Shown here: positions 44,472 through 63,505 of the stretch, in pieces
Layout: every line of letters starts with the position of its first letter
How positions within the stretch are numbered: position 1 is the stretch's first letter
Source of the DNA: Planctomycetota bacterium
Lineage (GTDB): Bacteria > Planctomycetota > UBA8108 > UBA1146
Direction: 5' to 3'
Assembly: GCA_036338595.1 (NCBI GenBank)
Contig: JAYZBV010000100.1
Span: 20,774 to 84,773, forward strand
DNA length: 64,000 nucleotides
Position numbers and translations under genes: made by a program
Notes under the pieces: generated by a model
What the model was told of the DNA's origin: nothing
What the model saw: the letters and a program-made list of their open reading frames with translations, nothing else
Databases searched by the model: none

Positions 44472-44504
44472 CCAGTGGACCGAAGTCGAAGAAGGAGACG
44501 TCAC

Positions 44505-46634: not shown

Positions 46635-46662
46635 TTGACTCCCTCCCTCTGGGATCTATACT
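46635..46662 (+). promoter_or_regulatory. Strong sigma70-like promoter upstream of the pilM/secretin/exbBD cluster
   Basis: TTGACT (46635-40), 16-nt spacer, TATACT (46657-62). Predicted TSS about 46669. Confidence 0.65.
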
Positions 46663-46668
46663 TCCCTC

Positions 46669-47289
46669 TTCCCGGGGATCGATCGGTTCTCCCGCTTTGT
46701 GGCCCTTGGGGGCAGGCGGGGACTGTTCGAGAAACATGATCAAGGGAAGGAATGCGCTCCACATATTGAGAGCAGAAACTGCGGGAACCGACCCTCACGG
46801 GCGGCTCTGGATGCATTTGTCTTCTGATCTCGATGTGTCGGAGTAGGTGCAGGAGGCATCTCCTGCACCGGTAGTGGTGGTCATCGCGGCGACCTGGTTC
46901 GTGCGATGGTCTGCAAAGGATCTGGGTCTTCGAGATGAAGATAGGCCCAACAGGCCCGACTCAAGACGAGGCTAACCTGAACTGCCGTTGCAGTTGTGGG
47001 TTCATGACCTCGACGGGTATCACCTTTGCGATCATCCTCTGGCCGGTAGCTCGATCTCTACCGCTGTCGTGTTCTTTCAGTCCTCGATCATTGGATTGCG
47101 ATCACCGGGAAACGAATCGATAGCGAGATCAGTACCCGGCATGTCCGGAATTCTCGTGACTCGTGTCACTGAACATCTCAACGCGGGACCATTCCCGGGT
47201 GGCTGATGGTGTTCTGTGAGTGCTAGGAATTTGATACTGGTTGACCATTAGACGTAACGGTGCGTTGGCGCCGTTGGAGAGAGGTATCC
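46669..47289 (+). ncRNA. Candidate structured leader or small RNA (unassigned family)
   Basis: No credible ORF. Long-range pairing of 46671-46695 with 46781-46801. Perfect 10-bp hairpin 46846-46869 and further stems at 46882-46908, 46980-46995, 47044-47063 and 47256-47275. Confidence 0.35.
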
Positions 47290-49176
47290 ATGGCCGACTT
47301 TGATGAAGTCTGGTGCATCGATGCAGGAAAATCATCTCTCAAGGCAGTGAAACTACAGCGAGCCGGAAACGGTGCCGAGGTAATTGCTGCAGAGAAGATT
47401 GATAATCCAGGCGGTGGCGAGGTAGACACCTCGACTGCTGCTGTATCTGCACTGGCCTCACGGCATGATCTGACGGGCGCCGTCGTCGTGACGCTTCCGA
47501 GTAGATCAGCTCTGACCAGTTTTATTCCGATTCCACCCGTGGATGGAAAGAAGCTGGAGGAGTTGATTGGATACGAGGCTCAGCAGAATATTCCCCTGCC
47601 GATCGATGAAGTGATCTGGGGAAGCCATGTCAGTGGCGACACCGAGGAGGGGGAGAAGGAAGTCGGTATCTTTGCTGTTCGCAGCGAAGAGATCTCGGAT
47701 CTTCTGGTCGACTATGATCAAGACGGGGTGGATATCGATCTGCTGACTCTTGGCAATGTCGGCCTGCTGAATCTGATCCGATTCGACCTCAGACCTACTC
47801 GTCCCATCGTGGCACTTGAGATGGGTTCCGATCACACGGACCTGATCATCGTCAACGAGAACAGGTTCTGGTTCAGATCACTTCCTATCGCAGGAAAAGA
47901 CTTCACGAATGCATTAAAGGAGAAGTTTGGCTGTACCGAAGAAGAGGCAGAAAATCTCAAGGTAACGGCCGCTCGATCGGAGCATGCAGCCAAGATCTTC
48001 AAGGAGGTCCAGCCGTTGCTTCGTGATCTCGTCAATGAGATCAACAGGTCGATCGGGTACTACAAATCGCGAGTGGGAGAGGTCAAGGTGGACGACCTTT
48101 TCCTCTTCGGTGGTAGCAGTAAATTGGTGGGGCTTCGCAAGTTCCTCGAGGAAAATCTGAGAATCCGGGTTCAATTGACCAAGAACCTGAACCGAGTTCG
48201 CATCGGTTCTGAAGCGAGCGCTTCAGGGATTCAGCAGGATCTTGCTTCCTACTGCACCGCCATCGGAGCGGGGCTGCAAGCGCTCGGTCTTGGAGATGTT
48301 GACCTGAATCTGCTCCCTCAAGAGAAGCAGGAGGCGGTCGAGTTTCAGAAGAAAAAGAAAACAGTTCTGGTCGCCGCTGCGAGCTTGTATCTGCTGATCG
48401 TGTTCTTCATCCTGAATTTCGGTGGAAAGATCGAACGCGCCCAGGAGGTGCTCGCTTCCGCTGGTGTGGTCAAGGATCTCAAGGCCAATCAGGTTCGGCT
48501 TTCAGACCTGGAGCAGACCGTCTCTCTCGATCTGCAGGCCAAGCAGCAACAGTTGCTGATGCGCGGCGCAGGCCGTCTGGCACCACGTGAAATCCTCAGC
48601 ATCGTCGGCGGCGTGGTCTCTGGCGAGGTTGGCGCCAACATTCTTTCCCAGCGCTCCGAGGCTGGGCCCGAGCACGATAGCATTCGTGGCCAGATCGTGG
48701 CGGACCAGGAAGTCCTCAACAGGCAAAAGACCTGGCTTTCCGGCCTCGATTTCAAAAAGGTGCGCGTCGACGAGAATGGTGTCATCAAGGAAGCCGGTTC
48801 CAAGATCGTCGAAGGGGTCAAGATCTACGACGATCGGTTCCTCGTGGTGCTCACAGGATTCCGATATGACGCCGGAGATTCGCAATCCAATGATCAAAAG
48901 TTGAAGGATCTGGTGGTCGCTCCCATCGAGTTGAAACTCGCTGAGATGTACGGCGAGGGCGATCCCACCATGCCCCGCGTGAGTCGCGAGGTGGGGGGGG
49001 AGATGAGGACGATGTTCCAGAGACATGAGAGTTTCAAGAGCACGGGAAGAACCAGGGGAGTCAAGGTCGACGACGAACGCGACCACGGCGCTATTTTCTA
49101 TCCATGGACGGTGACCTGGATTCATCCACCCCTTCCGGGTTTGGGTGATGAGCCAGGCTCCGGTGATGAAGAATAG
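47290..49176 (+). CDS. pilM: PilM-PilN fusion: actin-like cytoplasmic domain, NLLP motif, TM and periplasmic domain
   Basis: CIDAGKSSLKAV, YEAQQNIPLPIDEVIW, LEMGSDHT, AGKDFT, EINRSIGYY and GGSSKLVGL. Then AIGAGLQ-VDLNLLP (PilN-like), a TM helix and a coiled coil. GAGAGG RBS. Confidence 0.85.
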   Translation: MADFDEVWCIDAGKSSLKAVKLQRAGNGAEVIAAEKIDNPGGGEVDTSTAAVSALASRHDLTGAVVVTLPSRSALTSFIPIPPVDGKKLEELIGYEAQQNIPLPIDEVIWGSHVSGDTEEGEKEVGIFAVRSEEISDLLVDYDQDGVDIDLLTLGNVGLLNLIRFDLRPTRPIVALEMGSDHTDLIIVNENRFWFRSLPIAGKDFTNALKEKFGCTEEEAENLKVTAARSEHAAKIFKEVQPLLRDLVNEINRSIGYYKSRVGEVKVDDLFLFGGSSKLVGLRKFLEENLRIRVQLTKNLNRVRIGSEASASGIQQDLASYCTAIGAGLQALGLGDVDLNLLPQEKQEAVEFQKKKKTVLVAAASLYLLIVFFILNFGGKIERAQEVLASAGVVKDLKANQVRLSDLEQTVSLDLQAKQQQLLMRGAGRLAPREILSIVGGVVSGEVGANILSQRSEAGPEHDSIRGQIVADQEVLNRQKTWLSGLDFKKVRVDENGVIKEAGSKIVEGVKIYDDRFLVVLTGFRYDAGDSQSNDQKLKDLVVAPIELKLAEMYGEGDPTMPRVSREVGGEMRTMFQRHESFKSTGRTRGVKVDDERDHGAIFYPWTVTWIHPPLPGLGDEPGSGDEE

Positions 49177-49184
49177 GGGGCCAC

Positions 49185-50006
49185 ATGAATGACAAACTAT
49201 TCTGGTCGCTCCTCGGAGTCATCCTGCTCGGTTGGATCATCCTGTTCCTGTTCATGGTCGTACCAAAGATGAACGAATACGATGCGGTGACCAAGAAGCT
49301 ATCGAGTGAGAAGCGTGCGATTCAGAAGTATGCCGAAATGGATTCATCGATGCTTCCCACCGAAGATCTTGTCGAGGCCAAGGAGAAGTTCCTGACCAGA
49401 TGGCGCCGTCAGATCGACCGTGCAGAGCAATTCCATGAGAACCGTTCGATTCTCTTTGCCGAGGGTGCCATCAGTGATCTGAGTGCCTGGGCAACACGTT
49501 ACAGGGATAACTTCGAATCGCTTCAAAGTCGCTATAGCCAGCATACGGGCCATCAGTTCGATGCAGAAGATAAGGATCCTCCGTTCGAGATCATGGACGA
49601 CATCTCTGATCCCGGACAGGTCGAGAAGTATGAGCGGAGCTGGAAGGTGCAAAAGGATCTTGTCGATCGCATCATTGCAATTCCTGGAGCTTCCATCGAC
49701 GAATTGACCATCGCCAAGAAGACAACTAGAAAGTCAAACCAGGCCGATTCCGGTGTATTCCCCGTGGTCTTGTTTGCGAAAGTACCTCCTGCCAGTGTCG
49801 GCAGCCTGGTCGACGGTCTTCTTCGCCATACCTATGTCGACTTCGAGGTCAAGCATCTGGCCATCGCCAAGGATAAGGCTGGCCTGATCTTTGATGTTGT
49901 CGAGGAACTGGAAGAAGGAAGCGCTGGCATCGGATCCGAGCCTGTTGTGTTGTTACTCATCGAAATGAATGTGCTCCACGGCGTGGTTGCCGAGAGCAGC
50001 CAGTAG
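49185..50006 (+). CDS. PilO/GspM-like bitopic inner-membrane protein
   Basis: N-terminal TM (WSLLGVILLGWIILFLFMVVP), coiled coil and ferredoxin-like C-terminal pattern. Lies directly after pilM-N. Confidence 0.5.
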   Translation: MNDKLFWSLLGVILLGWIILFLFMVVPKMNEYDAVTKKLSSEKRAIQKYAEMDSSMLPTEDLVEAKEKFLTRWRRQIDRAEQFHENRSILFAEGAISDLSAWATRYRDNFESLQSRYSQHTGHQFDAEDKDPPFEIMDDISDPGQVEKYERSWKVQKDLVDRIIAIPGASIDELTIAKKTTRKSNQADSGVFPVVLFAKVPPASVGSLVDGLLRHTYVDFEVKHLAIAKDKAGLIFDVVEELEEGSAGIGSEPVVLLLIEMNVLHGVVAESSQ

Positions 50007-50020
50007 GAACGAGGCAGTCA

Positions 50021-51124
50021 GTGCAGAATATCGACAAGTGGGCCGGTGCAGTGGCAATCCTGGTCCTGGTGGTTGGATTCGCCTGGTCTTTACTGATGAA
50101 AGATCAGGGGGGGGAGTACTCGGATGCTATCGAAAGAGCCGACGATAGGATCAACGAGATTTCTGCCGCACAAAACCTGGGACCCCAAGCGCCTCCTGAA
50201 GTCGAGAATGAGGTCCGAAGTGCCTACTCCTTCCAGGGGGAAACCAGGATTCCAGAATGGGCCTTTTACCGCCGTCCTGCTCGACTGGAACTGTTCAGCA
50301 CCGCAGTGGCTCTTCCTCCGCAATTGAGTGAGAACTGGATCGCCAGAGTTGATGTCGTCAGGGTGGCCGAAAATCGCTCGACGATTCACAAGATCAGTGG
50401 TCGACACTGCGCGTTCGAACGTGCCGAGATCGTGTCTTGCAGTCTCGAGATGAGTGTCGGTTCCGAAGACTGGGCCAAGGTGGCATCTTTCCCGGGTGCC
50501 GCATCGGGTGCCGAGTTCTCGCATCTGGTCGACGTCTCCCTGGAGCCCGGAAAAGCCTATCGCTACCGTATTGTGACGCGAGGCCGATCCACCAGTTCGA
50601 TCGCCTTTTCTGCGGGCGCTGATGTTGTGACATCGGCTGCGACCGGAGCGGTTCTTTTTCCAGCGGATTCCATCTGGCGAGTCAGTGGTGCTCAGATAGG
50701 TAAGCTGGATTCAGGCGGTAACTTCGTTCCAGGGCGAGTGACGATACAGAACTCGTACTGGGATTGGGATTCAGCCTCGACGAAACGCAATACCAAGATC
50801 ATCACGGAGAGCGCCCAGGGTGTACCCGGGATTGATCTATTCGGAACCGGATACAGCCTCGAGCGAATCCAGGATACGGCAGACGGTCGCACCGTCGTGC
50901 TCAAGGACGCAACGGGCAAGCGTATGTATCTCAAGAACAATGCCGATCCCCAACCGCTGGTCCCAGATGGGTGGGCAAATCTGGATGGGGATCCTGCGGA
51001 TGCATCGGAAATCGAATCGGATGATGCGGAGACTCCCGAGGCAATTCCTGATGAGGAGAAGCCCGTGGAGCCTGCGAAACCTCGTCCCAGCGGCGGCGGA
51101 CTCTTCGGAGGTGGAGACGACTGA
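50021..51124 (+). CDS. Membrane-anchored periplasmic protein with FN3-like domain and acidic/Pro-rich tail
   Basis: N-terminal TM, LEPGKAYRYRIV FN3 signature and C-terminal DDAETPEAIPDEEKPVEPAKPRPS. Confidence 0.5.
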   Translation: MQNIDKWAGAVAILVLVVGFAWSLLMKDQGGEYSDAIERADDRINEISAAQNLGPQAPPEVENEVRSAYSFQGETRIPEWAFYRRPARLELFSTAVALPPQLSENWIARVDVVRVAENRSTIHKISGRHCAFERAEIVSCSLEMSVGSEDWAKVASFPGAASGAEFSHLVDVSLEPGKAYRYRIVTRGRSTSSIAFSAGADVVTSAATGAVLFPADSIWRVSGAQIGKLDSGGNFVPGRVTIQNSYWDWDSASTKRNTKIITESAQGVPGIDLFGTGYSLERIQDTADGRTVVLKDATGKRMYLKNNADPQPLVPDGWANLDGDPADASEIESDDAETPEAIPDEEKPVEPAKPRPSGGGLFGGGDD

Positions 51125-51408
51125 TCGACAACCAGGGATGCCGCCCAGCAGGTCGGCACAGCCAAGGGGCTGATTCGATCTGCGGGACGGTATCGATGAC
51201 AATGAACTGCGAGTCGCCGGGGCCATGCCATGGTTCCCATACGCTGGCAGGGGAACCCGGGAGCCGTTTCTCGGGGGTCGGAATGGATGAAAATCGGAAA
51301 GATCGGGGATCGGAACATCTGATCCCTGGAGACACACGCCCTTCAAGGGCCGGCATCTGCATTGAGGCGCCGGATCCAGGGTTGGCCGTGCGAAGCAAGG
51401 AGAGATTG

Positions 51409-53913
51409 ATGACGAATATCCTGCGGGCATCTTCTGCGCGAGTCGGTGCGCTGATCTTCGCGTGCTTTCTGTTGCTCGTTTGCGGAACTGCCAGTCCAGT
51501 GTCTGCCTATCAGGCAGATGATGTGGATGAACTGATCCGTGATATTGCCCTCGAAGGCCAGGAGCGAGTCAAAGCTTCTCAGTCTGCCACCGAGGCGGCG
51601 CAGAAGTTGATGAACGAACTCCGGTATGTTGAGGCCGAAGATAAGTTGCAGGAGGCCGTTCGCCTCGATCCGGGAAATGATGATGCCCGGCAGAAGCTGG
51701 AGACGGTGCTGCTGATCCTTGGAGATCGAAGCGGTGACATCCAGGATCTGAGGAGACGTCTGGTCGAGGAGAAGAATGTTCGTCTTCAGCAGGATGTGTT
51801 CGAACTGGAGAGACTCTATCTCTCCGGGCGTCGTGCCATGGACGACAACGATTATGACAAGGCGATCACTGTATTCGATCAGGTTCTGGAACGGATTCGC
51901 TGGTTCCCCTTCGACTTTGACCTCAGCGATCAGCAGAACCGCGCCAAGCAATCCAAGCAGGAGGCGACCAGGCTGCGCCAGCAGGCGACAGCTGCTGCTC
52001 GCAGAGAGCAAGAGATGCGCATCCTCTCCCAGGCCGAGTCAGAGATGGCTCGCTCTGTTTCCTTCATCCAGAACCGGATCGAGGAAGTGCTGCGCCAGGC
52101 CCGTCGTCTCTTTGCAGAGAGGGACTACGAGGCGGTGATTGACCTCTGTGATACCGTGCTGAATCTCGACCCAACGCGACAGGATGTCCGCGCACTGCGG
52201 AGAGAAGCTGCGGAGTTGAGACACATGTACGAGGTTCTGGATTCGGGCATGCAAACAGCCGTCGAGTGGGATCGGACCTTCATCTCGCAGCTGGAATCCG
52301 AGATCCCTTACACCGACATCTTCAATTTCCCCTCTCGGGAAGACTGGATGCGGATCAGCCGCCAGGACCAGAGCCTGGAGCAAAGGCTGCAAGCCGTTGA
52401 GAGCGCCCAGGAGCAGAGTATTCGAAGCAAGTTGCGAGTTCGGGTGGCGAGCGTTGAATTCCCGGATGAGCCCTTCGATCAGGTGATGAAGTTCTTGTCG
52501 GATCTGTCAGGCATCAACTTTGTACTGACGATGGAAGCGCGTGAAGCACTCGAAGGTGGCGATGGCATGGTGCGACTGGCTGAGGTTTCCGACCTGCCGC
52601 TGGAAAATGTTTTGAACCTGGTTCTTTCAGGGAACGAACCGCCATTTTCGTACGTCATCCGTTCGGGGGCTGTGCTGGTTGGACCTTCCGATTCCATCAG
52701 GAATGATCTTTTCCTGGAGTTCTACGAGGTCTCCGACATCACCAAGGACCATCCGGACTTCCGGGCACCCAAACTTGCGCTCCAGTCGAGCCAGGACGGT
52801 GACGCCGGTGGTGGTGGGGGCCTGTTTGACCTCGGAGGTGAAGAAGACACGCAGGAGACGACGCTAGATAGTGACCTGCTGGTCGAACTGGTGATCACTG
52901 CACTCTTCGGAGATGAAGGAGAACCAGATGGTGAGAGCGTCAAGTACCAGAACGGAAAGCTGGTGGCGCGTACTACCCTGGAAAACCACAGGAAGTTGAT
53001 CCAGTTGCTCCAGGCATTGCGCAAGTCAACAGGAGTGATGGTGACGGTTGAAGCGCGCTTCATCGATCTCCAGGACAACTTCCTCGAGTCTATTGGTGTC
53101 GACTACGGAAATCCCTTCAACTCGAATCTGCCGAACCCGATCAATGACACGGATGGTGCGGGTGCTCAGATTGCATCCGGTTTCGAAATTGTTGATGCAC
53201 AGGGCGAAATCGATGTCAGGGCTGCTGCCTACAATGCTTTCTCGTTGCCGCTGGGCTCCTCGGTCTCTCCATTCGAGATCAGTAACCGCGGTGGGTTTGC
53301 CCTTCAGTACAATGTTCTCGACACCTATGCACTTGAGGCGATTCTCGAAGCGAACCAGAAGTCGCAACAGTTCCGTCGTCTCGACGCGCCTCGCGTGACT
53401 GCGTTCAATACCCAGATTTCTCACTCATTGGTGATAGATCAGAGCGCATATATCGCGGACGCCGAGGTCAACCAGACTGGCGTGGTGCCGGTCATCAATC
53501 CTGTCATCGAGATCCTCAATGCAGGTTCCATCCTGCAGGTACGCCCCACGGTGAGCCACGACAGGAAGTATGTGATCCTGGAGATCGAGCCGACGCTGGC
53601 AGTGCAGTTGCCTTCTCGTTTCAAGACGCTGACGCTGGGGCTGACCAACCTCAATGTCGAGTTCCCGGTGCTGTCGGTCACCAACATCAAGACTACGGTG
53701 ACGATTCCCGATGGAGGCACGGTACTGGTCGGTGGACTGAAACGAACCATCACCCAGGACTCTCAGGTTGGAATCCCAAGTATCTCACGGTTGCCGCTGC
53801 TAGATTTTCTGCTCGGAAGAAAGGGTCAAGCACGGATGCAGTCAAATCTGTTTGTGCTGATCAGTTCGAAAATCACCGTGATTCGTGATGAGGAGAGCAA
53901 GAGGTTCAACTGA
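51409..53913 (+). CDS. Secretin 1 (T2SS/T4P family) with N-terminal TPR/coiled-coil extension
   Basis: Signal peptide, TPR (AVRLDPGND) and STN-like domain (VEFPDEPFDQVMKFLSDLSGINFV). MVTVEARFI, APRVTAFN, LQVRPTVSHDRKYV, TTVTIPDGGTVLVGGL and GIPSISRLP. AAGGAG RBS. Confidence 0.85.
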   Translation: MTNILRASSARVGALIFACFLLLVCGTASPVSAYQADDVDELIRDIALEGQERVKASQSATEAAQKLMNELRYVEAEDKLQEAVRLDPGNDDARQKLETVLLILGDRSGDIQDLRRRLVEEKNVRLQQDVFELERLYLSGRRAMDDNDYDKAITVFDQVLERIRWFPFDFDLSDQQNRAKQSKQEATRLRQQATAAARREQEMRILSQAESEMARSVSFIQNRIEEVLRQARRLFAERDYEAVIDLCDTVLNLDPTRQDVRALRREAAELRHMYEVLDSGMQTAVEWDRTFISQLESEIPYTDIFNFPSREDWMRISRQDQSLEQRLQAVESAQEQSIRSKLRVRVASVEFPDEPFDQVMKFLSDLSGINFVLTMEAREALEGGDGMVRLAEVSDLPLENVLNLVLSGNEPPFSYVIRSGAVLVGPSDSIRNDLFLEFYEVSDITKDHPDFRAPKLALQSSQDGDAGGGGGLFDLGGEEDTQETTLDSDLLVELVITALFGDEGEPDGESVKYQNGKLVARTTLENHRKLIQLLQALRKSTGVMVTVEARFIDLQDNFLESIGVDYGNPFNSNLPNPINDTDGAGAQIASGFEIVDAQGEIDVRAAAYNAFSLPLGSSVSPFEISNRGGFALQYNVLDTYALEAILEANQKSQQFRRLDAPRVTAFNTQISHSLVIDQSAYIADAEVNQTGVVPVINPVIEILNAGSILQVRPTVSHDRKYVILEIEPTLAVQLPSRFKTLTLGLTNLNVEFPVLSVTNIKTTVTIPDGGTVLVGGLKRTITQDSQVGIPSISRLPLLDFLLGRKGQARMQSNLFVLISSKITVIRDEESKRFN

Positions 53914-53981
53914 GTCGCTGGTTGCCTGAAGTTTAGTTGCACGGCATGAATGTCGTTGCCCGCGCCGGGGAGGCGGGGATG

Positions 53982-54017
53982 GAATTGATGAAGTCACAGA
54001 ATTGATGAAGTCACAGA
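53982..54017. repeat. Perfect 17-bp tandem duplication GAATTGATGAAGTCACA at the start of the 951-aa TPR gene
   Basis: Copies at 53982-53998 and 53999-54015, plus GA. Confidence 0.9.
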
Positions 54018-56857
54018 GCCGATCTGAGTGGGAATCCGTCAGGTTTCCTGCACTGCTATGTTTGTGGGTCTGGGTGTCGCTGATTGCGACTCCTCTGGCT
54101 CCTGCACAGAGTATTGGTCGTGGTGATCTGACCAGCGAAGAGACGCTGCTGGTGAGGGAACTGCTCGTGACATACAGCAGCCCCGATCTTGCTCGCATCT
54201 GGATCGCCTCCCGTCAAAAAACAGCCAGCGGATCGGGAAGAGCCACTCTCGAGTACTTCCTTGCCGACGCAGTGCGCATCGAGGGAGATGTGGATCGGTA
54301 CGAGGAGATGATTCTCGCGCTCGCAAAGAGGTATCCAGACCACTCCCGTTCGAAGGGCGCAAAACTGGAGGCTGTCCTGGCTGCGATGTTGAGGCTCTCC
54401 GATGCCAACACGGAGGCTGTCTTTGCGACCAGTCCCTCTGACCGCAACAGATTCATCCAGGACCGGGATCGGATCTGGGAAGACGAGGTCCGTAGAGTCC
54501 TCGAGGACAACATCCGGATTCAAAACTCTGACGTGGATTCCATCGAGGCCCAGGTCATCGCAGTTTCGCCTTCCAATCCGGAGCAGAAACAGCAACTCGT
54601 GGCCCAGATGAATGAAAAAGTCGAGATTCGAGATCTGTGGGAGTTCCAGTTGCTGGCGGCGATTCAAACCTACTCCGCCTTGCTGCCCGACGATTCGCCG
54701 AAAAAGGTCGATCTGTTCAATGAACTTGCGGAAAGAGCCAAGGGATTTGTCGATCAACGCTACGAGAACTTTGGTCGACGATACAGGGCGCAACTGATCT
54801 ACGGTCAAGCCCTTGCCGCTTCCGGGAAGCCGGAACAGGCTGCTGCTGAACTGGAACTTCTTGTCGACATCGAACCGAGTGGCGACCCTCCCTATGCGGC
54901 TGAGGTGGTTCAGTTCATCCGCAGCTTGAGAATCGAGTCCCTGGCAGGTTCGCTGGCCGCTTATAATCGTGCGTCTCGAGCCTCCGATGCGCTGGAGTTG
55001 CTCGAGTATCTGTTCGAGGAGATCGATCCCAACTTCCCATACCGGAGAACGCCTGAGGATCCGGAAATCGCACCGCTGGTAGCGATGCTCGATGTAGAGG
55101 AAGCGATCTCTCGAATTGCTGGAGGAGATCGGGTGGGTGGGCTTGCGTTGCTGAATGACCTGATCGATCGCTACGATCATCCCGATTCCTGGAAAGCGGA
55201 TCCAGCTGGTACGAGGGAGACACTGGATCGCCTATCTCGAGGAATCAGCCGCCTCATTGACATGCGGGTGGGTTCTCTGGAACCCGAGTTGTATGTGCGA
55301 GGTGCGGCAGGATTCCGTGACCGTGGACAACCGGTGCTGGCAGTCGAAACTGCAAAACACGCCCTCTCGGCCGGCACGAGTGACAAGAATTCGAAGCAGT
55401 GGAAGGCCAAGGCGCTCTACGAGATCGGCGAATCAAACGATGTTCTGGGCAGGACCGAAGAAGCGGCACTGGCTTACCAGACCCTTGTCGAGTCGTACCC
55501 CGAGAGCGAAGTGGTCGCGATGGCGAGTCAGAACTTCTTTGCCATCGTCGGGGACCTCGGAGTCGATCAGGGCGGTGCCTGGGCTGAATTGATTCCTGTA
55601 GCTGAGAAATATTTTGCGGATAATTCCCAGGGTCTCGGTAGCGAACAACTGAAGTTGCAGCAAGCGACAGAGGCCGAGATGGAGGGGGACTACCGCAAGG
55701 CACGGGATCTGTTCAGAAGAATTGTTGCCCACTACGACGATGGTGCGGGAGATGTCCGCGTCCCATTCTTCTACAGGGCTCGCGCTGGCGGGGCTCGATG
55801 CCTCTTCAGGATGGGCACGGATGTCGAACAGGCGACCAGGGATGCCGCTGGCGAGATTCTTGCCTTGCTCGACGGTGCTCGCAACGACCGAGATGTGTCG
55901 GGCGAGTCTGCACTCAGATATGAACTGGCTCGAATCTACTGGAGTGATCGAGGCGAAGATGCCGAGAAGGCGATCTCTGCGCTTCAACCTGTGCTCGATA
56001 AACTGGCCGGTACCGGAGTATATCGCGAAGGTGCGGTTTTACTTCTTCATGAGATTCAGTGTGCTGACGGCAAGATCGCCGCTGCTGAGAAGAGCCTGGC
56101 CGAGATTCGCAGGAGCTGGTCGAAAGAGCACTCCCTGGTTGTCGCAACCTACAACCACATCGAAGCGTGTCGGCTCGGTTCGGAAACCGAGCAAAAGCGT
56201 CGTGCTGGCGAACTGGTGCTGGATTGGATCAAGTTGCCCGGGGCAAACTTCGATGAATCGGATCCAGCGGTGCGACTCGGGTTGGCCAACATCCTCATCG
56301 AGGGCAATTTTGCGGATGAGGCTGCCTTGATGCTTTCCGGGGCGCAAAAGGCACTGGAGGGTACGGACGATCCGGTGCTCGATATTGGAGTTTCATACTT
56401 CCTCGCCAAGGCAGCAAATGCTGCGAGCAAGCATCTGGATGCTCTCAAGAGCCTCGACACCATCATCGAGCGATACAACGATGACACATATAACGGTACC
56501 TACCCCGATGCGCCTTTCGTGTTTGTGCAGAGGGCCGTCGCGCACCGCGGATTGTACGAGAAAGACCGCGATGCCGGACGCCTGGAGAAGATGGCGGATG
56601 ACCTGACGGCGGCTCTGGCAATTCTCGACCAGCGTCGACAATCTCTCATCTTTGCCGGCGGCTCGACGCCGCTCTTCGAGCGAGATTACTGGGCAACATG
56701 GCTGCAGTATCTGGAGGTATTGAAGGCGAGACGGATGTGCGAACGAGTGGTACTTCTGATCAGTAGTCGAAGGTTGATGGCGGGTGGAGAGACGGCAGCA
56801 TTTGCTCCGACTTCCCTGCAGGGTCGATTCGACCAGCTGGAGAAGGATTGCCAGTGA
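54005..56857 (+). CDS. Large exported TPR/alpha-solenoid protein
   Basis: Signal-like ALLCLWVWVSLIATPLAPAQ. TPR motifs (LAKRYPD, ALYEIGE...AYQTLVESYPES). Confidence 0.65.
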   Translation: MKSQSRSEWESVRFPALLCLWVWVSLIATPLAPAQSIGRGDLTSEETLLVRELLVTYSSPDLARIWIASRQKTASGSGRATLEYFLADAVRIEGDVDRYEEMILALAKRYPDHSRSKGAKLEAVLAAMLRLSDANTEAVFATSPSDRNRFIQDRDRIWEDEVRRVLEDNIRIQNSDVDSIEAQVIAVSPSNPEQKQQLVAQMNEKVEIRDLWEFQLLAAIQTYSALLPDDSPKKVDLFNELAERAKGFVDQRYENFGRRYRAQLIYGQALAASGKPEQAAAELELLVDIEPSGDPPYAAEVVQFIRSLRIESLAGSLAAYNRASRASDALELLEYLFEEIDPNFPYRRTPEDPEIAPLVAMLDVEEAISRIAGGDRVGGLALLNDLIDRYDHPDSWKADPAGTRETLDRLSRGISRLIDMRVGSLEPELYVRGAAGFRDRGQPVLAVETAKHALSAGTSDKNSKQWKAKALYEIGESNDVLGRTEEAALAYQTLVESYPESEVVAMASQNFFAIVGDLGVDQGGAWAELIPVAEKYFADNSQGLGSEQLKLQQATEAEMEGDYRKARDLFRRIVAHYDDGAGDVRVPFFYRARAGGARCLFRMGTDVEQATRDAAGEILALLDGARNDRDVSGESALRYELARIYWSDRGEDAEKAISALQPVLDKLAGTGVYREGAVLLLHEIQCADGKIAAAEKSLAEIRRSWSKEHSLVVATYNHIEACRLGSETEQKRRAGELVLDWIKLPGANFDESDPAVRLGLANILIEGNFADEAALMLSGAQKALEGTDDPVLDIGVSYFLAKAANAASKHLDALKSLDTIIERYNDDTYNGTYPDAPFVFVQRAVAHRGLYEKDRDAGRLEKMADDLTAALAILDQRRQSLIFAGGSTPLFERDYWATWLQYLEVLKARRMCERVVLLISSRRLMAGGETAAFAPTSLQGRFDQLEKDCQ

Positions 56858-57975
56858 TGAAAGATGGATGGATGACCTTCTTCAGTGTCTCAATCGACTG
56901 CTTCCAGTTCACCTGGACCAGGAATGCGCTGTCTCTGATATTGCTGCTGACCACTGGCCTTGCTGGAACCCTGGATTCGCATGCCGATGAAATCTACGTC
57001 ACCGGCGGGCGGGACTATCAGGGGGTGACCATCACCACTGCCACCTGGGAGCAGGTCGAGTACCGCCTTCAAGGTGTGAGTACATCACAGAAGATTGCTG
57101 CAGATCGGGTTCTCGAACTGGTCTTCTCACTCGAGCCGGTCGGGATTGGTCGTGGACGCGGAGCGTTGGAGCAAGGTGATTACGAGGGGGCGGTAGAGGC
57201 CCTCAAGAGTTCCACCAGTCAGGGCGACCCTCGCCAGAGAGCCAATGCCAAGTACCTGTACGGGATGGCCCTCTTGCGCTGGGGGGAACAGGATCCTGTG
57301 CACCTTCCCGAGGCGGTCGTTGCACTCGGTGAGTACCTCTCCGAATTCGAGCAGAGCAGGGACTACTATGTTCCCCATGCACGGATGGCGCTGGCGGAAG
57401 CTCACCGTCGTTCAGGGAATTGGACTGAAGCCGGGCAGGCACTGGCGGTACTGTCGGGAGGCGACCTGGGAAAACACTGGATTCTCGGAGCGACTCTGGG
57501 CAAGGCGGAAGTGCTACTCGCGCAGGATATGTGGGTCGAGGCGCGCGAGTTGTTCTCAACGGTAGCGAACGACTCGCAGGCCGGTGCCAGATTGGTTGCC
57601 GATGCCTGGCTCGGATACGCCACCTGTCAGGTTGGGCAGAAGCAGTGGAGTTCTGCCGCGGATACGGTGCGCCAGAAGATCCTGGAAACTCGGGATCGCA
57701 ACATCGAAACGATGACTTCCGCAAGAGCTCGCGCATGGTTGATCTGGGGGCGAGCAACACAGGGGAAGTCTCCCGATGACAGGGCAGAACTGCAGTGGGC
57801 GATGATTCGCTACTTCAGGGCAACAGTGATTGCGACAGCCGGCGATGGAGAGATCCTTGCCGAAGCACTCTTCAGAGCAAAAAGCGCTGCAATGGCACTC
57901 GGTCAGTCGGATCGCGTGGAGGAATTGACGCAGCGATTACAGCAACTGGTACCGAATTCGACATGGAATCGCTGA
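56857..57975 (+). CDS. Exported TPR protein
   Basis: Signal ending SHA-DEI, small beta N-domain, TPR helices and C-terminal AEALFRA...LQQLVPNSTW. TGATG coupling to the previous gene. Confidence 0.65.
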   Translation: MKDGWMTFFSVSIDCFQFTWTRNALSLILLLTTGLAGTLDSHADEIYVTGGRDYQGVTITTATWEQVEYRLQGVSTSQKIAADRVLELVFSLEPVGIGRGRGALEQGDYEGAVEALKSSTSQGDPRQRANAKYLYGMALLRWGEQDPVHLPEAVVALGEYLSEFEQSRDYYVPHARMALAEAHRRSGNWTEAGQALAVLSGGDLGKHWILGATLGKAEVLLAQDMWVEARELFSTVANDSQAGARLVADAWLGYATCQVGQKQWSSAADTVRQKILETRDRNIETMTSARARAWLIWGRATQGKSPDDRAELQWAMIRYFRATVIATAGDGEILAEALFRAKSAAMALGQSDRVEELTQRLQQLVPNSTWNR

Positions 57976-58035
57976 TCAACAGGAATCGATCCAGCTACAG
58001 GGTCACTCCCTGAGCTATTGAGAGGAAACGCACAG

Positions 58036-58782
58036 ATGAACATGACGAGTCTTTTCCGCGGAAAGTATTCGCGGCAGGTACTCATGATCCTGGTGTTGCT
58101 GGTGGTGGGGGCAATCGTGTCTCCTCTGGCTCAGGCCCAGGATCCTGCCCCTGTTGAGACGATTTCCATTCTGGATAATATCCTGGCCGCAGGAGTTGTC
58201 GGTGTAGTGCTGATCTTGCTTTCGGTTGCAGGAGTGTCACTGATCATCATGAACGCCATGCAGATGCGTCGAGATGTGCTAGTGCCTCCTGAACTGGTTG
58301 GCCATGTTGAAGGATTGTTCGAGACCGGTGACTACGAATCTGCGCTGGACGCCTGTGAGCAACAGCCCAGTTACTTTTCCAGCGTGCTCGCCGCAGGACT
58401 TCCAAAAATTGACCGCCCCTATGATGAAATCATGGAAGCGATGGAGGAAGCTGGCGAGGTGGAGGCTGCGCATCTGCACAGGAAAATCAGCCTCATCTCG
58501 CTGATTGCGGCGATTTCACCGATGTTGGGACTTCTGGGAACCGTGATCGGCATGGTCTCGGCATTCAATGTCATCGCCATCAGCAAGACATCGCCCAAGC
58601 CAAAGGAACTGGCGGGCGGTATCTCCCAGGCGTTGATGACGACGATGATGGGACTGATCGTGGCGATACCGATGACCGTGGCCTACTTCATCTTCAAGAC
58701 GAAGATCGACGCTGCTGCGGTGGAGGTGAGTAGTACTGCTACCGAGTTGATGGAACAGTTTGACGACCATCAGGTCCAGTAA
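58036..58782 (+). CDS. MotA/TolQ/ExbB proton channel family protein
   Basis: Cleavable-looking signal (AQA-QD) and TM helices. SPMLGLLGTVIGM and LAGGISQALMTTMMGLIVAIP. Confidence 0.93.
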   Translation: MNMTSLFRGKYSRQVLMILVLLVVGAIVSPLAQAQDPAPVETISILDNILAAGVVGVVLILLSVAGVSLIIMNAMQMRRDVLVPPELVGHVEGLFETGDYESALDACEQQPSYFSSVLAAGLPKIDRPYDEIMEAMEEAGEVEAAHLHRKISLISLIAAISPMLGLLGTVIGMVSAFNVIAISKTSPKPKELAGGISQALMTTMMGLIVAIPMTVAYFIFKTKIDAAAVEVSSTATELMEQFDDHQVQ

Positions 58783-58804
58783 CGCATAGTCTGGAGACAT
58801 AGCG

Positions 58805-59308
58805 ATGGCGAGAAAGAAGAAGGCGAAAAAGATCCACGAGGGTGTCGAGATGGACATGACTCCGATGATTGACATCGTGTTCCTTCTGATTGTCTTTTTC
58901 ATGGTTGTGACGGAACTTGCCGTCCAGCAGGCGGTGGTCATCCTTCCGGTAGCCAGTGAGGCGAAAGTTGAAGAACCACAACCCGGTTCCAGAATCCTGG
59001 TCGTGAATGTGTCGTTCGGAAAAGATGGAAATGAAATCCTCCAGTTGATGAATGGGGAGCCGTTGACTCCGAAGGAACTGGAAGTTGAATTGAAAGCGGA
59101 AGCTGAGGCGTACGGAAAGTTTGAAGACAACCCAAACAATCCGACTATGAAATTGTCCACTCTGCAGGTGACGATACGGTGTGACCAGGGAGCAGAAAGT
59201 GGAAACATTCACAAGATCTTTGCAGCCTGTCAGGCGGCAAGGATCTATCAGGTGAGTTGTGCAGCGATCAACGAGAGGTTGGAAGACCCGTACGTGACCC
59301 AGCCCTGA
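58805..59308 (+). CDS. ExbD/TolR family protein 1
   Basis: MDMTPMIDIVFLLIVFFMV with the conserved TM Asp, LPVA and VTIRCD. Confidence 0.9.
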   Translation: MARKKKAKKIHEGVEMDMTPMIDIVFLLIVFFMVVTELAVQQAVVILPVASEAKVEEPQPGSRILVVNVSFGKDGNEILQLMNGEPLTPKELEVELKAEAEAYGKFEDNPNNPTMKLSTLQVTIRCDQGAESGNIHKIFAACQAARIYQVSCAAINERLEDPYVTQP

Positions 59309-59358
59309 AGGCAGTACGGTTCGGTCGAGGTAAACCACGGTGATGGAAAGGAGGAAGA

Positions 59359-59871
59359 ATGGCGCGGCGAGCAAAGCCGAAACGAAATGTTGGCGAAGTG
59401 GAAACTGACATGACATCGATGATCGATGTTGTTTTCCTCCTGCTGATCTTTTTCATGTTGGCGACCAAGTTCAAATTGCCCGAGGGAACTTTGCGTTCGT
59501 ATCTGCCGAAGAACCGGGGCGAATCCAACAGCAGACCGATCATGTCGGAAACCTGCAGAATCACGCTGATGAACCAGGGTGGGCAGGTGATCGCCTACGC
59601 AGATCAGGCTCAAGTGCCCGTCAGTGACCTCCTCGATTCGGATTTCGAGCAGCACACCGGGATTCCAGGGCCAGATCTGCTCTTCATCGAGGACCATATT
59701 GGCCGCAGAAAGGCGACCTATGTGCCATTAGATGGTACGGGAACCCTTCCAGTGGTCATCGATTTCGCTGAGAATGTGCCTTACAAATATGTCATGGATG
59801 TCCTGAACATCTGTGCCAGAGCGAGAATTGATAACATCGCCTTTGCCCAGCCGGAGATTCCGCTGGAGTGA
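59359..59871 (+). CDS. ExbD/TolR family protein 2
   Basis: DMTSMIDVVFLLLIFFML with the conserved TM Asp, YLPK and VVID...VPYKYVMDVLN...IDNIAFA. Confidence 0.9.
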   Translation: MARRAKPKRNVGEVETDMTSMIDVVFLLLIFFMLATKFKLPEGTLRSYLPKNRGESNSRPIMSETCRITLMNQGGQVIAYADQAQVPVSDLLDSDFEQHTGIPGPDLLFIEDHIGRRKATYVPLDGTGTLPVVIDFAENVPYKYVMDVLNICARARIDNIAFAQPEIPLE

Positions 59872-59878
59872 GGTGGTG

Positions 59879-59911
59879 ACTGCCGAATCGGTAACTGTGT
59901 TTTTCGGCAGT
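59879..59911 (+). other. Intercistronic hairpin before secretin 2
   Basis: ACTGCCGAA...TTCGGCAGT 9-bp inverted repeat with no U-tract. Confidence 0.5.
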
Positions 59912-59991
59912 GCTGAAGATTGAATACATACTGCTCAGTTCGTCGATGTCCTCTTCAGGGAGGAATAGGCGACAAAAGAAAGGGTGCTCTC

Positions 59992-62676
59992 GTGATCGAG
60001 ACCCAAACCTCAAGCCCACGCGCATCGTTCCAATTCGCATGGGTGCTATGTGGACTGCTGTCTGCTGGCTTCGCCGTTTCTTCCCTGGCTGGCTGCGCCG
60101 GTTCCTCTGGCGACATTCTTGCCTCGTCAAGGAATGAGGTGACCGTTGAGCCACCTCGCACGGCGACAGGGGACTCCAGCCAGGATCTCTTCTCCAAGAC
60201 TTCTGGGGGGAACCAGGATGCCTCGGATGATGCGGTTCAGAATATCGCTGACGAGATCTCGCTCGAAGCACAGGAGCGTCGGCGTACTGCAATATGGCTT
60301 GTTGCTCAGGCAGACCGTTTCTTCGCCGAGGCCGATTACGCTGCGGCTGAGAGGGCGTATCGCAGAGCGCTGGATGCAGATCCCAGCCTGCAGGAAGCAA
60401 AGAAGAATCTTGCTCGCTGCCTGATGTTCCTTGGTCGTCGTGACGGAGAGATCCTCACCGTGCTCCAGCAGTTCGGCGAAGAGGTCCAGGTACTCGAGCA
60501 GCAGCGTCTCAGCGAGGCCACTCGGTTTCTTGCCGAGGGTAAGGCGGCTCTCGAGGATGGCAGAACCGATGAGGCCCTCGATTTACTTCAGCGTGCTCGC
60601 GAACGTCTGATCTGGTTCGAGTATGGTGTCGATGTTACGGAGATGCAGGAGGAAGCTCAGGCTCTCTACGATCGGGCCCGAAATCTCAAGATCTCATCGG
60701 ATGAGGTGGACCGTCGAAGCCGCGAAGAGTTCGCAATTCGCGAGGCGGAGCGGCTCACTTCGGAGGCTGAACAGCGCCGGGTCGAGCGAATCGCAACATT
60801 GATGGACCGCATCGAGGACGCCATGGTCCGGGAGGATTTCCGCGAGGCGGCTCAACTGTGCAAGACGATCCTGCAAATCGATCCTCAGAATAGTAGTGCT
60901 CAGCGTCTCCAGGAGCGTGCTCAGGAGTACCTGTCCTCGCACCGATATGTCAACTACCTCGAGCGTGACAAGGAACAGGAAATCAGGGTGTGGGAGGATC
61001 TGAAGCGTTCAGCGATCCCTTATGAGGATCCATTCCGTTTCCCGGACTCCCGTGACTTCTGGCAAACTGAGGTTCAGCAGCGCCTGAGTCGTCTATCGAC
61101 GGCGAGCCTCGAGGAATCGCCGGAGATCCGCAAGATCCGCAGAACTCTCGCCTCGGGTTCGACCTCATTTGACTTCCCGGATGCAAATCTAGCCGAGGTC
61201 GTCGATTTCCTTCGCAGCGTCAGTGACCTCAACATCAATATCGATCCCGAGATCGAAGGGGCCGATGTCCCGGTAAATTTGTCGCTCGACGGTGTCAAAC
61301 TGGGTGAAGCACTCGACCTCATCATGAAGTCTACGGGGAAAGCCTACACCTTCCGCGAAAATGTGTTGTTCATCACCGAGCCAGAGAACGCCTTTGGAAA
61401 CCTCTTGTTCGAGATCTACAACGTCACCGACATCCTCAACAAGATCAGAGATTTCCCGGGACCGAGGATTCGCGTCACCAGTAATGACGAAAGCGATGAT
61501 GGTGGAGGCAGTAATCCCTTCGACTTCGGTGGGTTTGATGAGGAAGAGGATGCGGAATTGACCCCGGATGACCTGGTCGAACTGATCCAGGAGTCTACCG
61601 GTGGTTCTGAGTCATGGGATGATTCCGGATCGACCATCAGTGGTCACAAGGGTCAGATTCTGGTCACCGCTACTCGTGAACTGCATCTGGCAATCCATGA
61701 TTTCCTCCAGAATCTCCGGACCAACAGCGATGTTTTCGTGGTTGTTGAAGCACGATTCATCGACATGGTGGACGACTTCCTCGAGGACATCGGTGTCGAT
61801 TCGAGAAATCTTGGCCAACCTCCTGGTCAGGGATTCGGAACCGCTTACGGCAACCTGAACTCCTCGGGCACTGGCGGATCCGACATCGGATTCAACAATC
61901 TTGGAGATCCGACCGATCCGGCACTGATCATGGGGCAGGACCGTACAGCTGGACGGATGCAACACATCCTGGACGGTTTCGTGGGAGCAGCCCGAGGTAG
62001 CCGACTCAATGCAACCTTGCGTGGCTTGACGATGCAGGTCACCTGGCTCGATCCCTTCCAGATCAATGCGATCATTCGCGCCAGCCAGGAGCAGCGCGCT
62101 GCACGGATCGTCACGGCACCCAAGGTGACCGCTTCGAACGGCCAGAGAGTGCATGTTTCCGTGATCACGCAGCGATCCTATGTTCAGGATTACGAACTGG
62201 TCTCAGGTGGTACCGGTCTGGTGGTCTCGGAAGTTGCTGACCCCGTCATCGACACCTTTCAGGATGGAGTCGTGCTCGATGTGCGTCCGGTGATCTCTGC
62301 AGATCGCCGATACATCACCATCGATGTGCGTCCTACGCTGGCAAGTCTCATCAACGGAGTGATCTCGACTGTGACGATCAGCCTCGGAACCTTGAACAAT
62401 GCAGCGAGCCTGGTGGAGATCGATCTGCCCGAGATATCGCTGCAACAGGCCTTCACTTCGGTGACAGTGCCAGATGGTGGAACGGTTCTACTGGGAGGAT
62501 TCAGGAGCCTCAATGAGCTCTCCTACAGGTCTCAGGTACCGATTCTCGGTAACATACCCTTCCTCAAGAATGCATTCCGTCGTAAGGCGTACCTCAATGA
62601 GAAGCGGAGTCTCTACATCCTCATCACGGCCAAGATTGTCGATCTGCGTGCTGAGGAGCGAAAACTCTACAACTGA
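59992..62676 (+). CDS. Secretin 2 (putative lipoprotein) with N-terminal TPR extension
   Basis: Lipobox LAGC, TPRs (AYRRALDADPS, ILQIDPQN) and STN-like FDFPDANLAEVVDFL. VVEARFI, APKVTASNGQ, LDVRPVISADRRYI, SVTVPDGGTVLLGG and VPILGNIPFLKNAF. Start codon uncertain. Confidence 0.87.
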   Translation: MIETQTSSPRASFQFAWVLCGLLSAGFAVSSLAGCAGSSGDILASSRNEVTVEPPRTATGDSSQDLFSKTSGGNQDASDDAVQNIADEISLEAQERRRTAIWLVAQADRFFAEADYAAAERAYRRALDADPSLQEAKKNLARCLMFLGRRDGEILTVLQQFGEEVQVLEQQRLSEATRFLAEGKAALEDGRTDEALDLLQRARERLIWFEYGVDVTEMQEEAQALYDRARNLKISSDEVDRRSREEFAIREAERLTSEAEQRRVERIATLMDRIEDAMVREDFREAAQLCKTILQIDPQNSSAQRLQERAQEYLSSHRYVNYLERDKEQEIRVWEDLKRSAIPYEDPFRFPDSRDFWQTEVQQRLSRLSTASLEESPEIRKIRRTLASGSTSFDFPDANLAEVVDFLRSVSDLNINIDPEIEGADVPVNLSLDGVKLGEALDLIMKSTGKAYTFRENVLFITEPENAFGNLLFEIYNVTDILNKIRDFPGPRIRVTSNDESDDGGGSNPFDFGGFDEEEDAELTPDDLVELIQESTGGSESWDDSGSTISGHKGQILVTATRELHLAIHDFLQNLRTNSDVFVVVEARFIDMVDDFLEDIGVDSRNLGQPPGQGFGTAYGNLNSSGTGGSDIGFNNLGDPTDPALIMGQDRTAGRMQHILDGFVGAARGSRLNATLRGLTMQVTWLDPFQINAIIRASQEQRAARIVTAPKVTASNGQRVHVSVITQRSYVQDYELVSGGTGLVVSEVADPVIDTFQDGVVLDVRPVISADRRYITIDVRPTLASLINGVISTVTISLGTLNNAASLVEIDLPEISLQQAFTSVTVPDGGTVLLGGFRSLNELSYRSQVPILGNIPFLKNAFRRKAYLNEKRSLYILITAKIVDLRAEERKLYN

Positions 62677-62710
62677 TTTGGACCGTAGCGTGGTCGAATG
62701 AACCACGACT

Positions 62711-62756
62711 CGGGGGTCGTTTCCTGGGCAGATGCCGGAAACGACCCCCGTTTCTT
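62711..62756 (+). terminator. Rho-independent terminator closing the secretin cluster
   Basis: 14-bp perfect stem CGGGGGTCGTTTCC / GGAAACGACCCCCG followed by TTTCTT. Confidence 0.75.
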
Positions 62757-62773: not shown

Positions 62774-63505
62774 ATGAGCGAAATTCGGGCGGTATTCTTC
62801 GATATTGACGGCACTCTATTTTCAACCGTTGACTTCGCATCTCGGGCCAGAGAAGCCAGTGTCGATGCGATGCTCGAAGCGGGGCTTCCAGTTGGCCGTG
62901 GCGAACTGCTGGAAGAACTGGCAGAGGTCGTTCGCGAGTTCTCCTCCAACTACGAACGGCACTTCGATAAGTTGCTACTTCGACTGCCGAGACGAGCGCT
63001 CAAGGGGCTCAATCCCGCGGTCATCATTGCGGCTGGAATCGTTGCTTATCACGATACGAAGACCCGTTTGCTGGAACCGTTCGAGGATGCCAGTGAAGTG
63101 TTGAGGCGTCTCGCACAGACCGATTTGATGCTCGGAATCATCACCGAGGGACTGGAAGTGAAGCAGGCGGAAAAGCTGGTGAGATTGCGTCTGCTCGAAT
63201 ATTTCCAGCAACGAGCGATCTTCATCTCTCACCAGGTGGGGATCTCCAAACCCAATCCAAAATTGTATCAGCGTGCCTGTATTGATCTGAATCTTCGGCC
63301 TTCCGAGTGCGTCTATGTGGGAGACAACCCGCTCATGGATGTAGACCCTGCCAATGAGATCGGCATGGTCACTGTTCAGGTCCAGCGCGAAGATCGGTAT
63401 CGAGATCTCAAGGGGGCGACGAACCCTGACCATGTCATCCAGAATTTCTGGGACCTGGCAGAACTGCTGCGTGAGCACGGTGTCGAGGTACCGGAGGTGC
63501 TCTAG
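62774..63505 (+). CDS. HAD-superfamily hydrolase (TIGR02253-like)
   Basis: FFDIDGTL, GIITEGLEVKQAEKL, SKPNP and YVGDNPLMDV. Confidence 0.88.
   Translation: MSEIRAVFFDIDGTLFSTVDFASRAREASVDAMLEAGLPVGRGELLEELAEVVREFSSNYERHFDKLLLRLPRRALKGLNPAVIIAAGIVAYHDTKTRLLEPFEDASEVLRRLAQTDLMLGIITEGLEVKQAEKLVRLRLLEYFQQRAIFISHQVGISKPNPKLYQRACIDLNLRPSECVYVGDNPLMDVDPANEIGMVTVQVQREDRYRDLKGATNPDHVIQNFWDLAELLREHGVEVPEVL

Follow-up and report, generated by a model that had tools for sequence, protein, structure and literature searches.

The 64,000-nucleotide stretch of planctomycete DNA analysed here (the window; positions 20,774 to 84,773 of contig JAYZBV010000100.1, assembly GCA_036338595.1, genome G000 in our set) contains a co-directional run of ten open reading frames (ORFs), at 47290-62676 on the plus strand, in which genes of a pilus-type scaffold, two secretins and a proton motor lie side by side. 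The gene order, namely a pilM-pilN fusion, a pilO-like gene, a fibronectin-III (FN3) anchor, secretin 1, a large and a small tetratricopeptide repeat (TPR) gene, exbB, two exbD genes and secretin 2, had been proposed in a first-pass annotation and was borne out by the ORF list and by family scans, Pfam and NCBIfam assigning PilM_2, Secretin plus TPR (twice), TPR (twice), MotA_ExbB and ExbD (twice) to the ten proteins. As also stated there, no gene for PilB, PilT, PilC, a pilin, TonB or a receptor was found among the ten genes of the cluster.

Organization of the cluster

The two secretins are the outer members of the core of the cluster. Secretin 1 (51196-53913, plus strand, with a true start that may lie further downstream) carries a helical TPR-like N-region followed by a secretin domain, while secretin 2 (59920-62676, plus strand), a likely lipoprotein, was analysed by Pfam, NCBIfam and a structure model. 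Both passed the PF00263 cut-off (69.3 and 88.9 bits against 27.5) and both remained under the cut-off of 750 of the Amuc_1098 family NF042912 (111.6 and 69.7 bits), to which they are therefore distant relatives only. The two proteins are 27% identical across 790 aligned columns, and in a FastTree phylogeny upstream and downstream secretins sorted mostly by position, indicating that they are old paralogues. In the model of secretin 2 (pLDDT 76, pTM 0.44) about 265 residues of the N-region are folded into long helices and TPR-like hairpins, which are followed by two small alpha/beta domains, interpreted as N0/STN and N3, and by the secretin beta domain; the best fold matches were BfpB, PilQ, InvG and GspD (E 5e-22).

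Variants of the secretin part were observed elsewhere. One genome (G050, locus L125) carries three secretins of this family in tandem behind pilM-O, and in the complete genomes from families f10 and f71 there is a single enlarged one (1370-1710 codons; L137-L140), unlinked to pilM and to the motor; as a guess, the enlarged forms would be candidates for crateriform pores if those genomes belong to cultured Planctomycetia. In many families a gene of 560-760 amino acids, encoding a sulfatase fold plus TPRs and missing from the window cluster, is inserted directly before the second secretin (L024:3793-5832, L025, L026, L027, L028, L030, L031, L033, L034, L035, L037, L133, L150, L154, L157, L162-L164 and L169). 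The insert was considered as a sign of sulfated-glycan use and this idea was rejected, as the sulfatase motif C/SxPxR is replaced by TxPxH (TxPxH in 13 of 14 proteins, any C/SxPxR-like match in just 2 of 14); judging from this motif, it may be a threonine-nucleophile transferase or a phosphodiesterase.

Between the secretins lie the TPR and motor genes. The large exported TPR protein (TPR-951; 54002-56857, plus strand) is a constant member of the motor cassette. The small one (TPR-372; 56848-57975, plus strand) was modelled (pLDDT 89.9) as a short beta domain, residues 45-92, on a TPR superhelix; fold searches with it returned generic TPR matches only, and TPR repeats dominated a profile search of protein representatives. 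The ExbB/TolQ-like subunit (58018-58782, plus strand; MotA_ExbB) has invariant T175 and T209, and the two ExbD/TolR-like subunits (58805-59308 and 59359-59871, plus strand), of which the second is 26% identical to the first, each retain an invariant aspartate (D23 in the first). These residues we take to correspond to T148, T181 and D25 of the E. coli proteins. Pfam families, pore threonines and ExbD aspartate are all conserved as in ExbB/TolQ-ExbD/TolR motors, and with its proton-path residues kept the motor looks functional from its sequence.

The first three genes encode a putative scaffold. The PilM-PilN-like fusion (47290-49176, plus strand; most likely starting at ATG 47290, giving 628 amino acids) matched PilM_2 at E 3e-25, and hydropathy indicated a cytoplasmic actin-like domain, a single membrane helix near residues 360-377 and a periplasmic part. 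It is a distant relative of Amuc_1101/Mul2B, scoring 181.1 bits against the Amuc_1101 family PilM-like model (NF045709), under the curated cut-off of 650. The PilO/GspM-like bitopic protein (49185-50006, plus strand) was tentatively assigned as a distant relative of Amuc_1100 through its orthologues, 7 of 22 matching the Amuc_1100 family NF038287 (best E 9e-7, a weak match) and 4 of 22 matching GspM; the window protein has no family match of its own and reached Amuc_1100 in the PDB at E 3.3. The membrane-anchored FN3 protein in the PilP position (50021-51124, plus strand) likewise takes its label from orthologues, fn3 being matched by 5 of 20 and the window protein itself being unmatched.

The cluster is framed by candidate control elements. 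A sigma-70-type promoter, TTGACT-N16-TATACT, was located at 46635-46662 (plus strand) from the ORF list, a promoter scan and an upstream alignment. The annotation had called it strong; the scan by itself gave no excess over chance (4 sites against 7.3 expected), and the promoter is supported because TTGAC and TATACT are invariant in 6/6 aligned upstream regions, in which mean column identity is 46%. It is followed by a poorly conserved leader of about 630 nucleotides (46663-47289, plus strand) containing no ORF of 100 amino acids and no Rfam match. At the other end, the predicted 14-bp terminator was found as a hairpin with a T-rich tail (62711-62756, plus strand) between secretin 2 and a HAD hydrolase gene, with a perfect stem (62711-62724/62737-62750) followed by TTTCTT, -35.5 kcal/mol and a z of -4.6; a simple terminator scan missed it, probably since the loop exceeds 8 nucleotides. 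In one marine metatranscriptome (0.11 of words present) 23 records aligned; those listed were short contigs at a depth of 2-5, which may reflect DNA carry-over, and covered the leader, both secretins, the large TPR gene and both exbD genes. The leader bore the deepest contig of this dataset, with the same possibility of DNA in the library. The flanking genes encode an MtaB-like radical SAM protein and a uracil-DNA glycosylase (UDG) upstream (44475-46588), and the HAD hydrolase and a glycosyltransferase downstream (62774-64000).

Conservation across Planctomycetota

The cluster was compared across 201 genomes of the phylum and in a set of 41 relatives, samples in which kin are not independent. 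Secretin 2 was matched in 174 of the 201 genomes (E 1e-25; 150 of 349 matches listed) and exbB in 163 (1e-33; 150 of 186 matches listed); among the 41 relatives, 40 had an exbB match and all had at least two matches to secretin 2. An exbB orthologue lay less than 10 kb from a secretin of this family in 65 of the 83 genomes with both among the matches listed, representing 27 families, compared with a chance expectation of about 1% in a 4.5-Mb genome. Three of the 18 genomes without a listed linkage had the motor linked to the first secretin, which was not among the matches listed. In hand-picked twin-secretin loci exbB and exbD lay between both secretins in 33 of 46, from 25 families, and the full ten-gene order was retained in families f1, f2, f5, f6 and f7 as far as the contigs extend. 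The core of secretin, TPR, TPR, exbB, exbD, exbD and secretin is widespread in Planctomycetota.

PilM-O-FN3 belongs to the system in some lineages only. Of 60 chosen genomes, 26 had a PilM orthologue (E 1e-104 or better) and 5 more a divergent copy, recognised by position; the other 29 had no PilM above the level of an ordinary PilM. Ten loci from pilM-less genomes had no pilM between the UDG gene and the first secretin, and seven of them retained the motor between the secretins; in several lineages the pilM-O-FN3 part was lost and pores and motor were kept. The TPR-TPR-exbB-exbD-exbD cassette is more stably kept than this part, and in three genomes (G042, G112, G184) one TPR gene persists between the secretins after loss of the motor. 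The proposal that pilM, both secretins and exbBDD remain syntenic held for the secretin pair and the cassette, which are joined across much of the phylum, but not for PilM-O-FN3, nor for several lineages in which the two halves are unlinked.

Pilus genes, sister cassettes and candidate transducers in trans

The first-pass annotation had described a machine free of ATPase, platform and pilins. This was not sustained at the level of the host genome (88% complete, 7% contamination), which encodes nine T2SSE-family ATPases, four PilB/GspE-like and five weaker ones read as PilT-like, three PilC/GspF proteins, five secretins above cut-off and 18 ORFs with a prepilin motif. These include a gspD-E-F-pseudopilin locus (contig C111), an ordinary pilMNOPQ (C99), pilT-pilB-pilC (C37), an orphan pilB-pilB-pilC (C71) and pilin clusters (C20 and C113). 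Extension ATPase, platform and prepilins of a split type IV filament are therefore all present in the genome, the set that would serve the cluster being a candidate only. PilC of the C71 type was matched in 60/60 chosen genomes, and at 16 of 20 loci it has two pilB genes in front of it, while at two it is followed by pilins. Since this set is widespread, an ATP-driven candidate partner for the cluster PilM is available in trans.

The idea that pilM-less lineages had also lost the pilB pair was rejected, as 8 of 11 such loci keep pilB-pilT-pilB-pilC, the remaining three having pilC without an adjacent pilB; a pilus ATPase locus adjoining the cluster was not borne out in any lineage among the genomes compared. 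C71-type PilC proteins (L102-L116) appear to lack the N-terminal 40-80 residues where PilM is lost or divergent and are full-length where PilM is long. A further locus of the host genome (C113:13567-28165, L095) is an orphan type IV filament locus with a divergent PilM-like gene, a TPR gene, four pilin-like genes and a 1910-residue GspK-like giant, preceded by a sigma-54 activator and an FHA protein. In several genomes a possible counterpart, a PilM-like gene whose matches follow a similar pattern, is located 12-20 kb away from the secretin cluster.

The usual partners of the motor were also sought. Neither a TonB C-terminal domain (TonB_C) nor a TonB-dependent receptor was found in the host genome at its 88% completeness. 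TonB-dependent receptors were detected in 32 of the 41 relatives, and in at least nine genomes the distance from a receptor gene to another exbB paralogue is about 4 kb or less. A separate TonB and receptor set, which the annotation had named as a possible explanation of the motor, does not account for it so far as the 88% complete genome shows.

In 17 of the 201 genomes a sister motor cassette was identified (E 1e-59 or better), whose ExbB forms one clade spanning distant families in a quick tree (SH-aLRT 100; this tree and the FastTree secretin tree both exclude L041-L068 and some near-duplicates). Its loci (L013, L014, L142-L145, L147, L149 and L170-L175) are horizontally spread. The cassette comprises a gene for a putative barrel transducer, two TPR genes, exbB, two exbD genes and a gene for a membrane-anchored protein of 280-350 amino acids without Pfam match. 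It is present in genomes whose secretins lack an in-cluster motor (G029, G031, G033, G042, G044, G112, G184 and G222) and was found in none of the 65 genomes with a well-conserved linked motor, which were chosen by strong matches, a choice favouring such an outcome. Among the 17 hosts, 15 were assessed: the in-cluster motor was gone in seven, divergent in four (with motor residues still present in those checked) and present in two, and two had no family secretin.

The barrel gene, which lies in cis in the sister cassette, encodes a protein with an S/AxxxH-bearing membrane helix, a linker that is charged or rich in proline, and a domain matching SQHop_cyclase_C weakly and read on that basis as a putative alpha/alpha barrel. 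Two such SxxxH barrel proteins are encoded in trans in the host genome, at C111:45664-47316 (L177) and C15:57880-59976 (L178). The family occurs in 131 of the 201 genomes and in 0 of 11 genomes of family f32, in which no motor orthologue was detected either; its genes are often in tandem and in some genomes expanded to seven or more copies. TonB and TolA bind their motors through an SHLS-type anchor (excerpts of PMC12204202), so the SxxxH barrel proteins are likely transducers of the cluster motor, and candidates for a new class of force transducer.

The best NCBIfam matches of the motor cassette, all under cut-off, were TolQ, TolR and a YbgF-like TPR protein. They are consistent with a Tol-Pal-like structural role, in which the motor would assemble, position or tether the pores and pin the outer to the inner membrane without moving cargo. 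TolB was found in the host genome below cut-off only, which would leave the motor without a canonical Tol target, and the crateriform contact sites of Planctopirus and Gemmata, organisms showing uptake sensitive to carbonyl cyanide m-chlorophenylhydrazone (CCCP), join both membranes (excerpts of PMC5394234). Two OmpA-domain genes lie on other contigs, and Pfam and NCBIfam detected no tolA, tolB or pal in the cluster. No peptidoglycan-binding domain was detected by the same scans in the ten proteins, however, and the horizontal spread of a complete sister cassette would be more typical of a substrate-related function. We consider a structural role distinctly unlikely.

A possible uptake machine and its relation to known systems

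We tentatively propose, at slightly less than even probability, that the cluster encodes a joined uptake machine drawing on a proton motor as well as on pilus genes in trans, a single envelope-spanning apparatus built of two modules that resemble the Akkermansia mucin-uptake loci MUL1 and MUL2 and are here encoded jointly. ATP-driven pilus or pseudopilus proteins encoded in trans would engage the PilM scaffold and deliver substrate to the secretin pore, and the proton motor, acting through SxxxH barrel proteins and the TPR scaffold, would open the pore or pull large substrates (glycans, proteins) into the periplasm. Where pilM-O-FN3 is lost, pores and motor would persist as the core. This reading is suggested by the secretin-motor linkage (65/83), by the motor nested between the secretins (33/46) and by the retention of pores and motor without a pilM orthologue. 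It is further suggested by the occurrence of the sister cassette where the in-cluster motor is gone (7/17) or divergent (4/17), and by the absence of the barrel family (0/11) from f32, where no motor orthologue was detected.

A bolder form, which we regard as somewhat unlikely, is that the twin secretins make up a gated import pore that the proton motor opens or ratchets directly, by way of TonB-like alpha/alpha-barrel transducers and the TPR scaffold, with no pilus ATPase needed in lineages without PilM-O-FN3. If true, a secretin would be energised like a TonB-dependent receptor, providing a basis for CCCP-sensitive macromolecule uptake and crateriform structures in planctomycetes. The conduit driven by proton motive force put forward in the first-pass annotation is close to this form; it gained from the secretin-motor linkage, the proton-path residues and the lack of a TonB or receptor explanation, and lost ground with the pilus genes of the genome, the lineages with unlinked halves and f32 with no motor detected.

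Several observations weigh against the joined uptake machine. In the complete f10 and f71 genomes the TPR-TPR-exbB-exbD-exbD cassette is intact but alone, the pilM operon and the single enlarged secretin being located elsewhere; the halves are unlinked in f10 and other lineages, and in f17 the exbB-exbD cluster is unlinked. In f32 pilM-O-secretin is present, and six genomes of this family yielded nothing beyond generic exbB matches, a full-length small TPR being absent from the results. Most of the loci compared across the phylum also have the unrelated UDG and HAD genes at the edges of the cluster, indicating that gene order here is slow to change. Two genomes (G224 and G169) keep the in-cluster motor alongside the sister cassette, G049 has a divergent motor and no sister cassette, and two of the 17 hosts (G110 and G146) have no family secretin at E 1e-25; in the stretches examined no secretin accompanies the sister cassette. 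The operon includes no enzyme for substrate binding or degradation, and direct proton-driven work on the secretin, including physical coupling, is a step that we infer. Mul1A (Amuc_0544) and Mul1B (Amuc_0543) of Akkermansia are TPR proteins, of which the cluster TPR proteins are candidate counterparts. Finally, MUL1 synteny was not found in aquatic Akkermansiaceae, according to PMC13174399.

Many of these points would be expected if two independent systems shared an old envelope super-operon, namely a split type IV pilus (PilMN-O-FN3 and secretins, with PilB, PilT and PilC in trans) and a general motor acting elsewhere via barrel transducers. Equally syntenic unrelated neighbours, a cassette that stands alone in f10 and f71 and in mobile form, and a pilus part without a motor orthologue found in f32 all agree with such an arrangement, as does the pilB-(pilT)-pilB-pilC arrangement, seen at 16 of 20 loci and also in lineages that have no pilM orthologue. 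Yet the cassette is nested between the secretins within a single promoter-terminator unit, it outlasts pilM-O-FN3 beside them, its loss goes together with acquisition of the sister cassette, and a TPR gene stays between the secretins after the motor is lost. On balance we consider two independent systems unlikely.

The joined uptake machine bears on a known problem. In planctomycetes uptake of green fluorescent protein and dextran is blocked by CCCP, the machine being uncharacterised, and energy-dependent uptake of intact proteins and polysaccharides across the outer membrane is unresolved (excerpts of PMC5394234); the operon offers a finite gene set as a concrete candidate. The complete f10 genomes hold the same parts dispersed, so that the idea can be tested in those strains provided that they are in culture, as genome size and completeness suggest. 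A secretin-ExbBD operon of planctomycetes was not found described in the open-access papers searched.

One TolQ-like and two different TolR-like subunits with periplasmic TPR proteins presumably resemble AglRQS-Glt, which would be consistent with a proton-driven export or surface-motility machine whose secretins release or move a surface adhesin. Gliding has been suggested for TPR-tolQ-tolR-tolR loci of the Planctomycetota-Verrucomicrobiota-Chlamydiota (PVC) group (excerpts of PMC12204202), which share with the cluster a TPR gene, one tolQ-like gene, an unlike tolR-like pair and a His-anchored transducer. We nevertheless judge such a machine very unlikely, since none of the ten proteins has a Glt-family match and the nearest scaffold relatives that have been tested function in mucin uptake (PMC13174399 and excerpts of PMC12570417). 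The transducer of the PVC loci is a vWA protein encoded downstream of the tolR-like pair, whereas in the cluster secretin 2 follows the second exbD and the candidate transducer is an alpha/alpha barrel in trans; by a simple motif scan no vWA was found in the downstream genes listed from 17 loci or in either SxxxH protein of the host genome. The word 'secretin' does not occur in the main text of PMC12204202.

With type IVa PilMNOPQ and the type II secretion system the cluster shares a PilM-like scaffold and the secretin fold, the ATPases, platform and pilins being present in the genome; it differs in the fused PilMN, the long helical TPR region on the secretins, the twin secretins and the motor genes in the operon. 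The motor fold, the proton-path residues and SxxxH-anchored partners, here in trans, are shared with TonB-ExbB-ExbD and Tol-Pal, from which the cluster differs by two different ExbD subunits and by a genome with no TonB_C, receptor or above-cut-off TolB detected.

The closest resemblance is to Akkermansia. The cluster PilM and secretin 2 have their best NCBIfam matches, far below the cut-offs, in the Amuc_1098-1101 families, and MUL2/Amuc_1098-1102 shows the same order of a PilM-type gene, an Amuc_1100-like gene (in the cluster a putative one) and a secretin of about 900 residues with N-terminal TPRs (excerpts of PMC4960237 and PMC13174399). Amuc_1098 is an abundant 907-residue outer-membrane secretin with N-terminal TPRs (excerpts of PMC4960237), and MUL2 is the PilM-type cluster amuc_1099-1102 (PMC13174399). 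Unlike MUL2, which has one secretin and a Mul2A/Amuc_1102-like pilin, the cluster has twin secretins, an FN3 protein in third place and the motor cassette inside the operon, and no ORF of 100 amino acids or more lies between its UDG and pilM genes, the genome beyond the locus being unsearched.

MUL1 (Mul1A, Mul1B and ExbB/D) has ExbD/B in common with the cluster and is needed for mucin transport (excerpts of PMC13174399 and PMC12570417). ExbD/B are named as expected MUL1 components in the excerpted supplement of PMC13174399, the make-up of MUL1 being taken from secondary accounts. Periplasmic mucin uptake depends on mul genes (excerpts of PMC13174399), and mul1A has been called a mucin transport gene, with mention of a pilus-linked import system (excerpts of PMC12570417 and bioRxiv 2024.03.27.586211). 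MUL1 is a separate locus in Akkermansia, whereas the cluster carries the motor within its operon. The joined uptake machine would thus link two Akkermansia mucin-uptake loci in one gene unit, and its candidate barrel proteins point to a second TonB-like transducer family beside the published vWA type.

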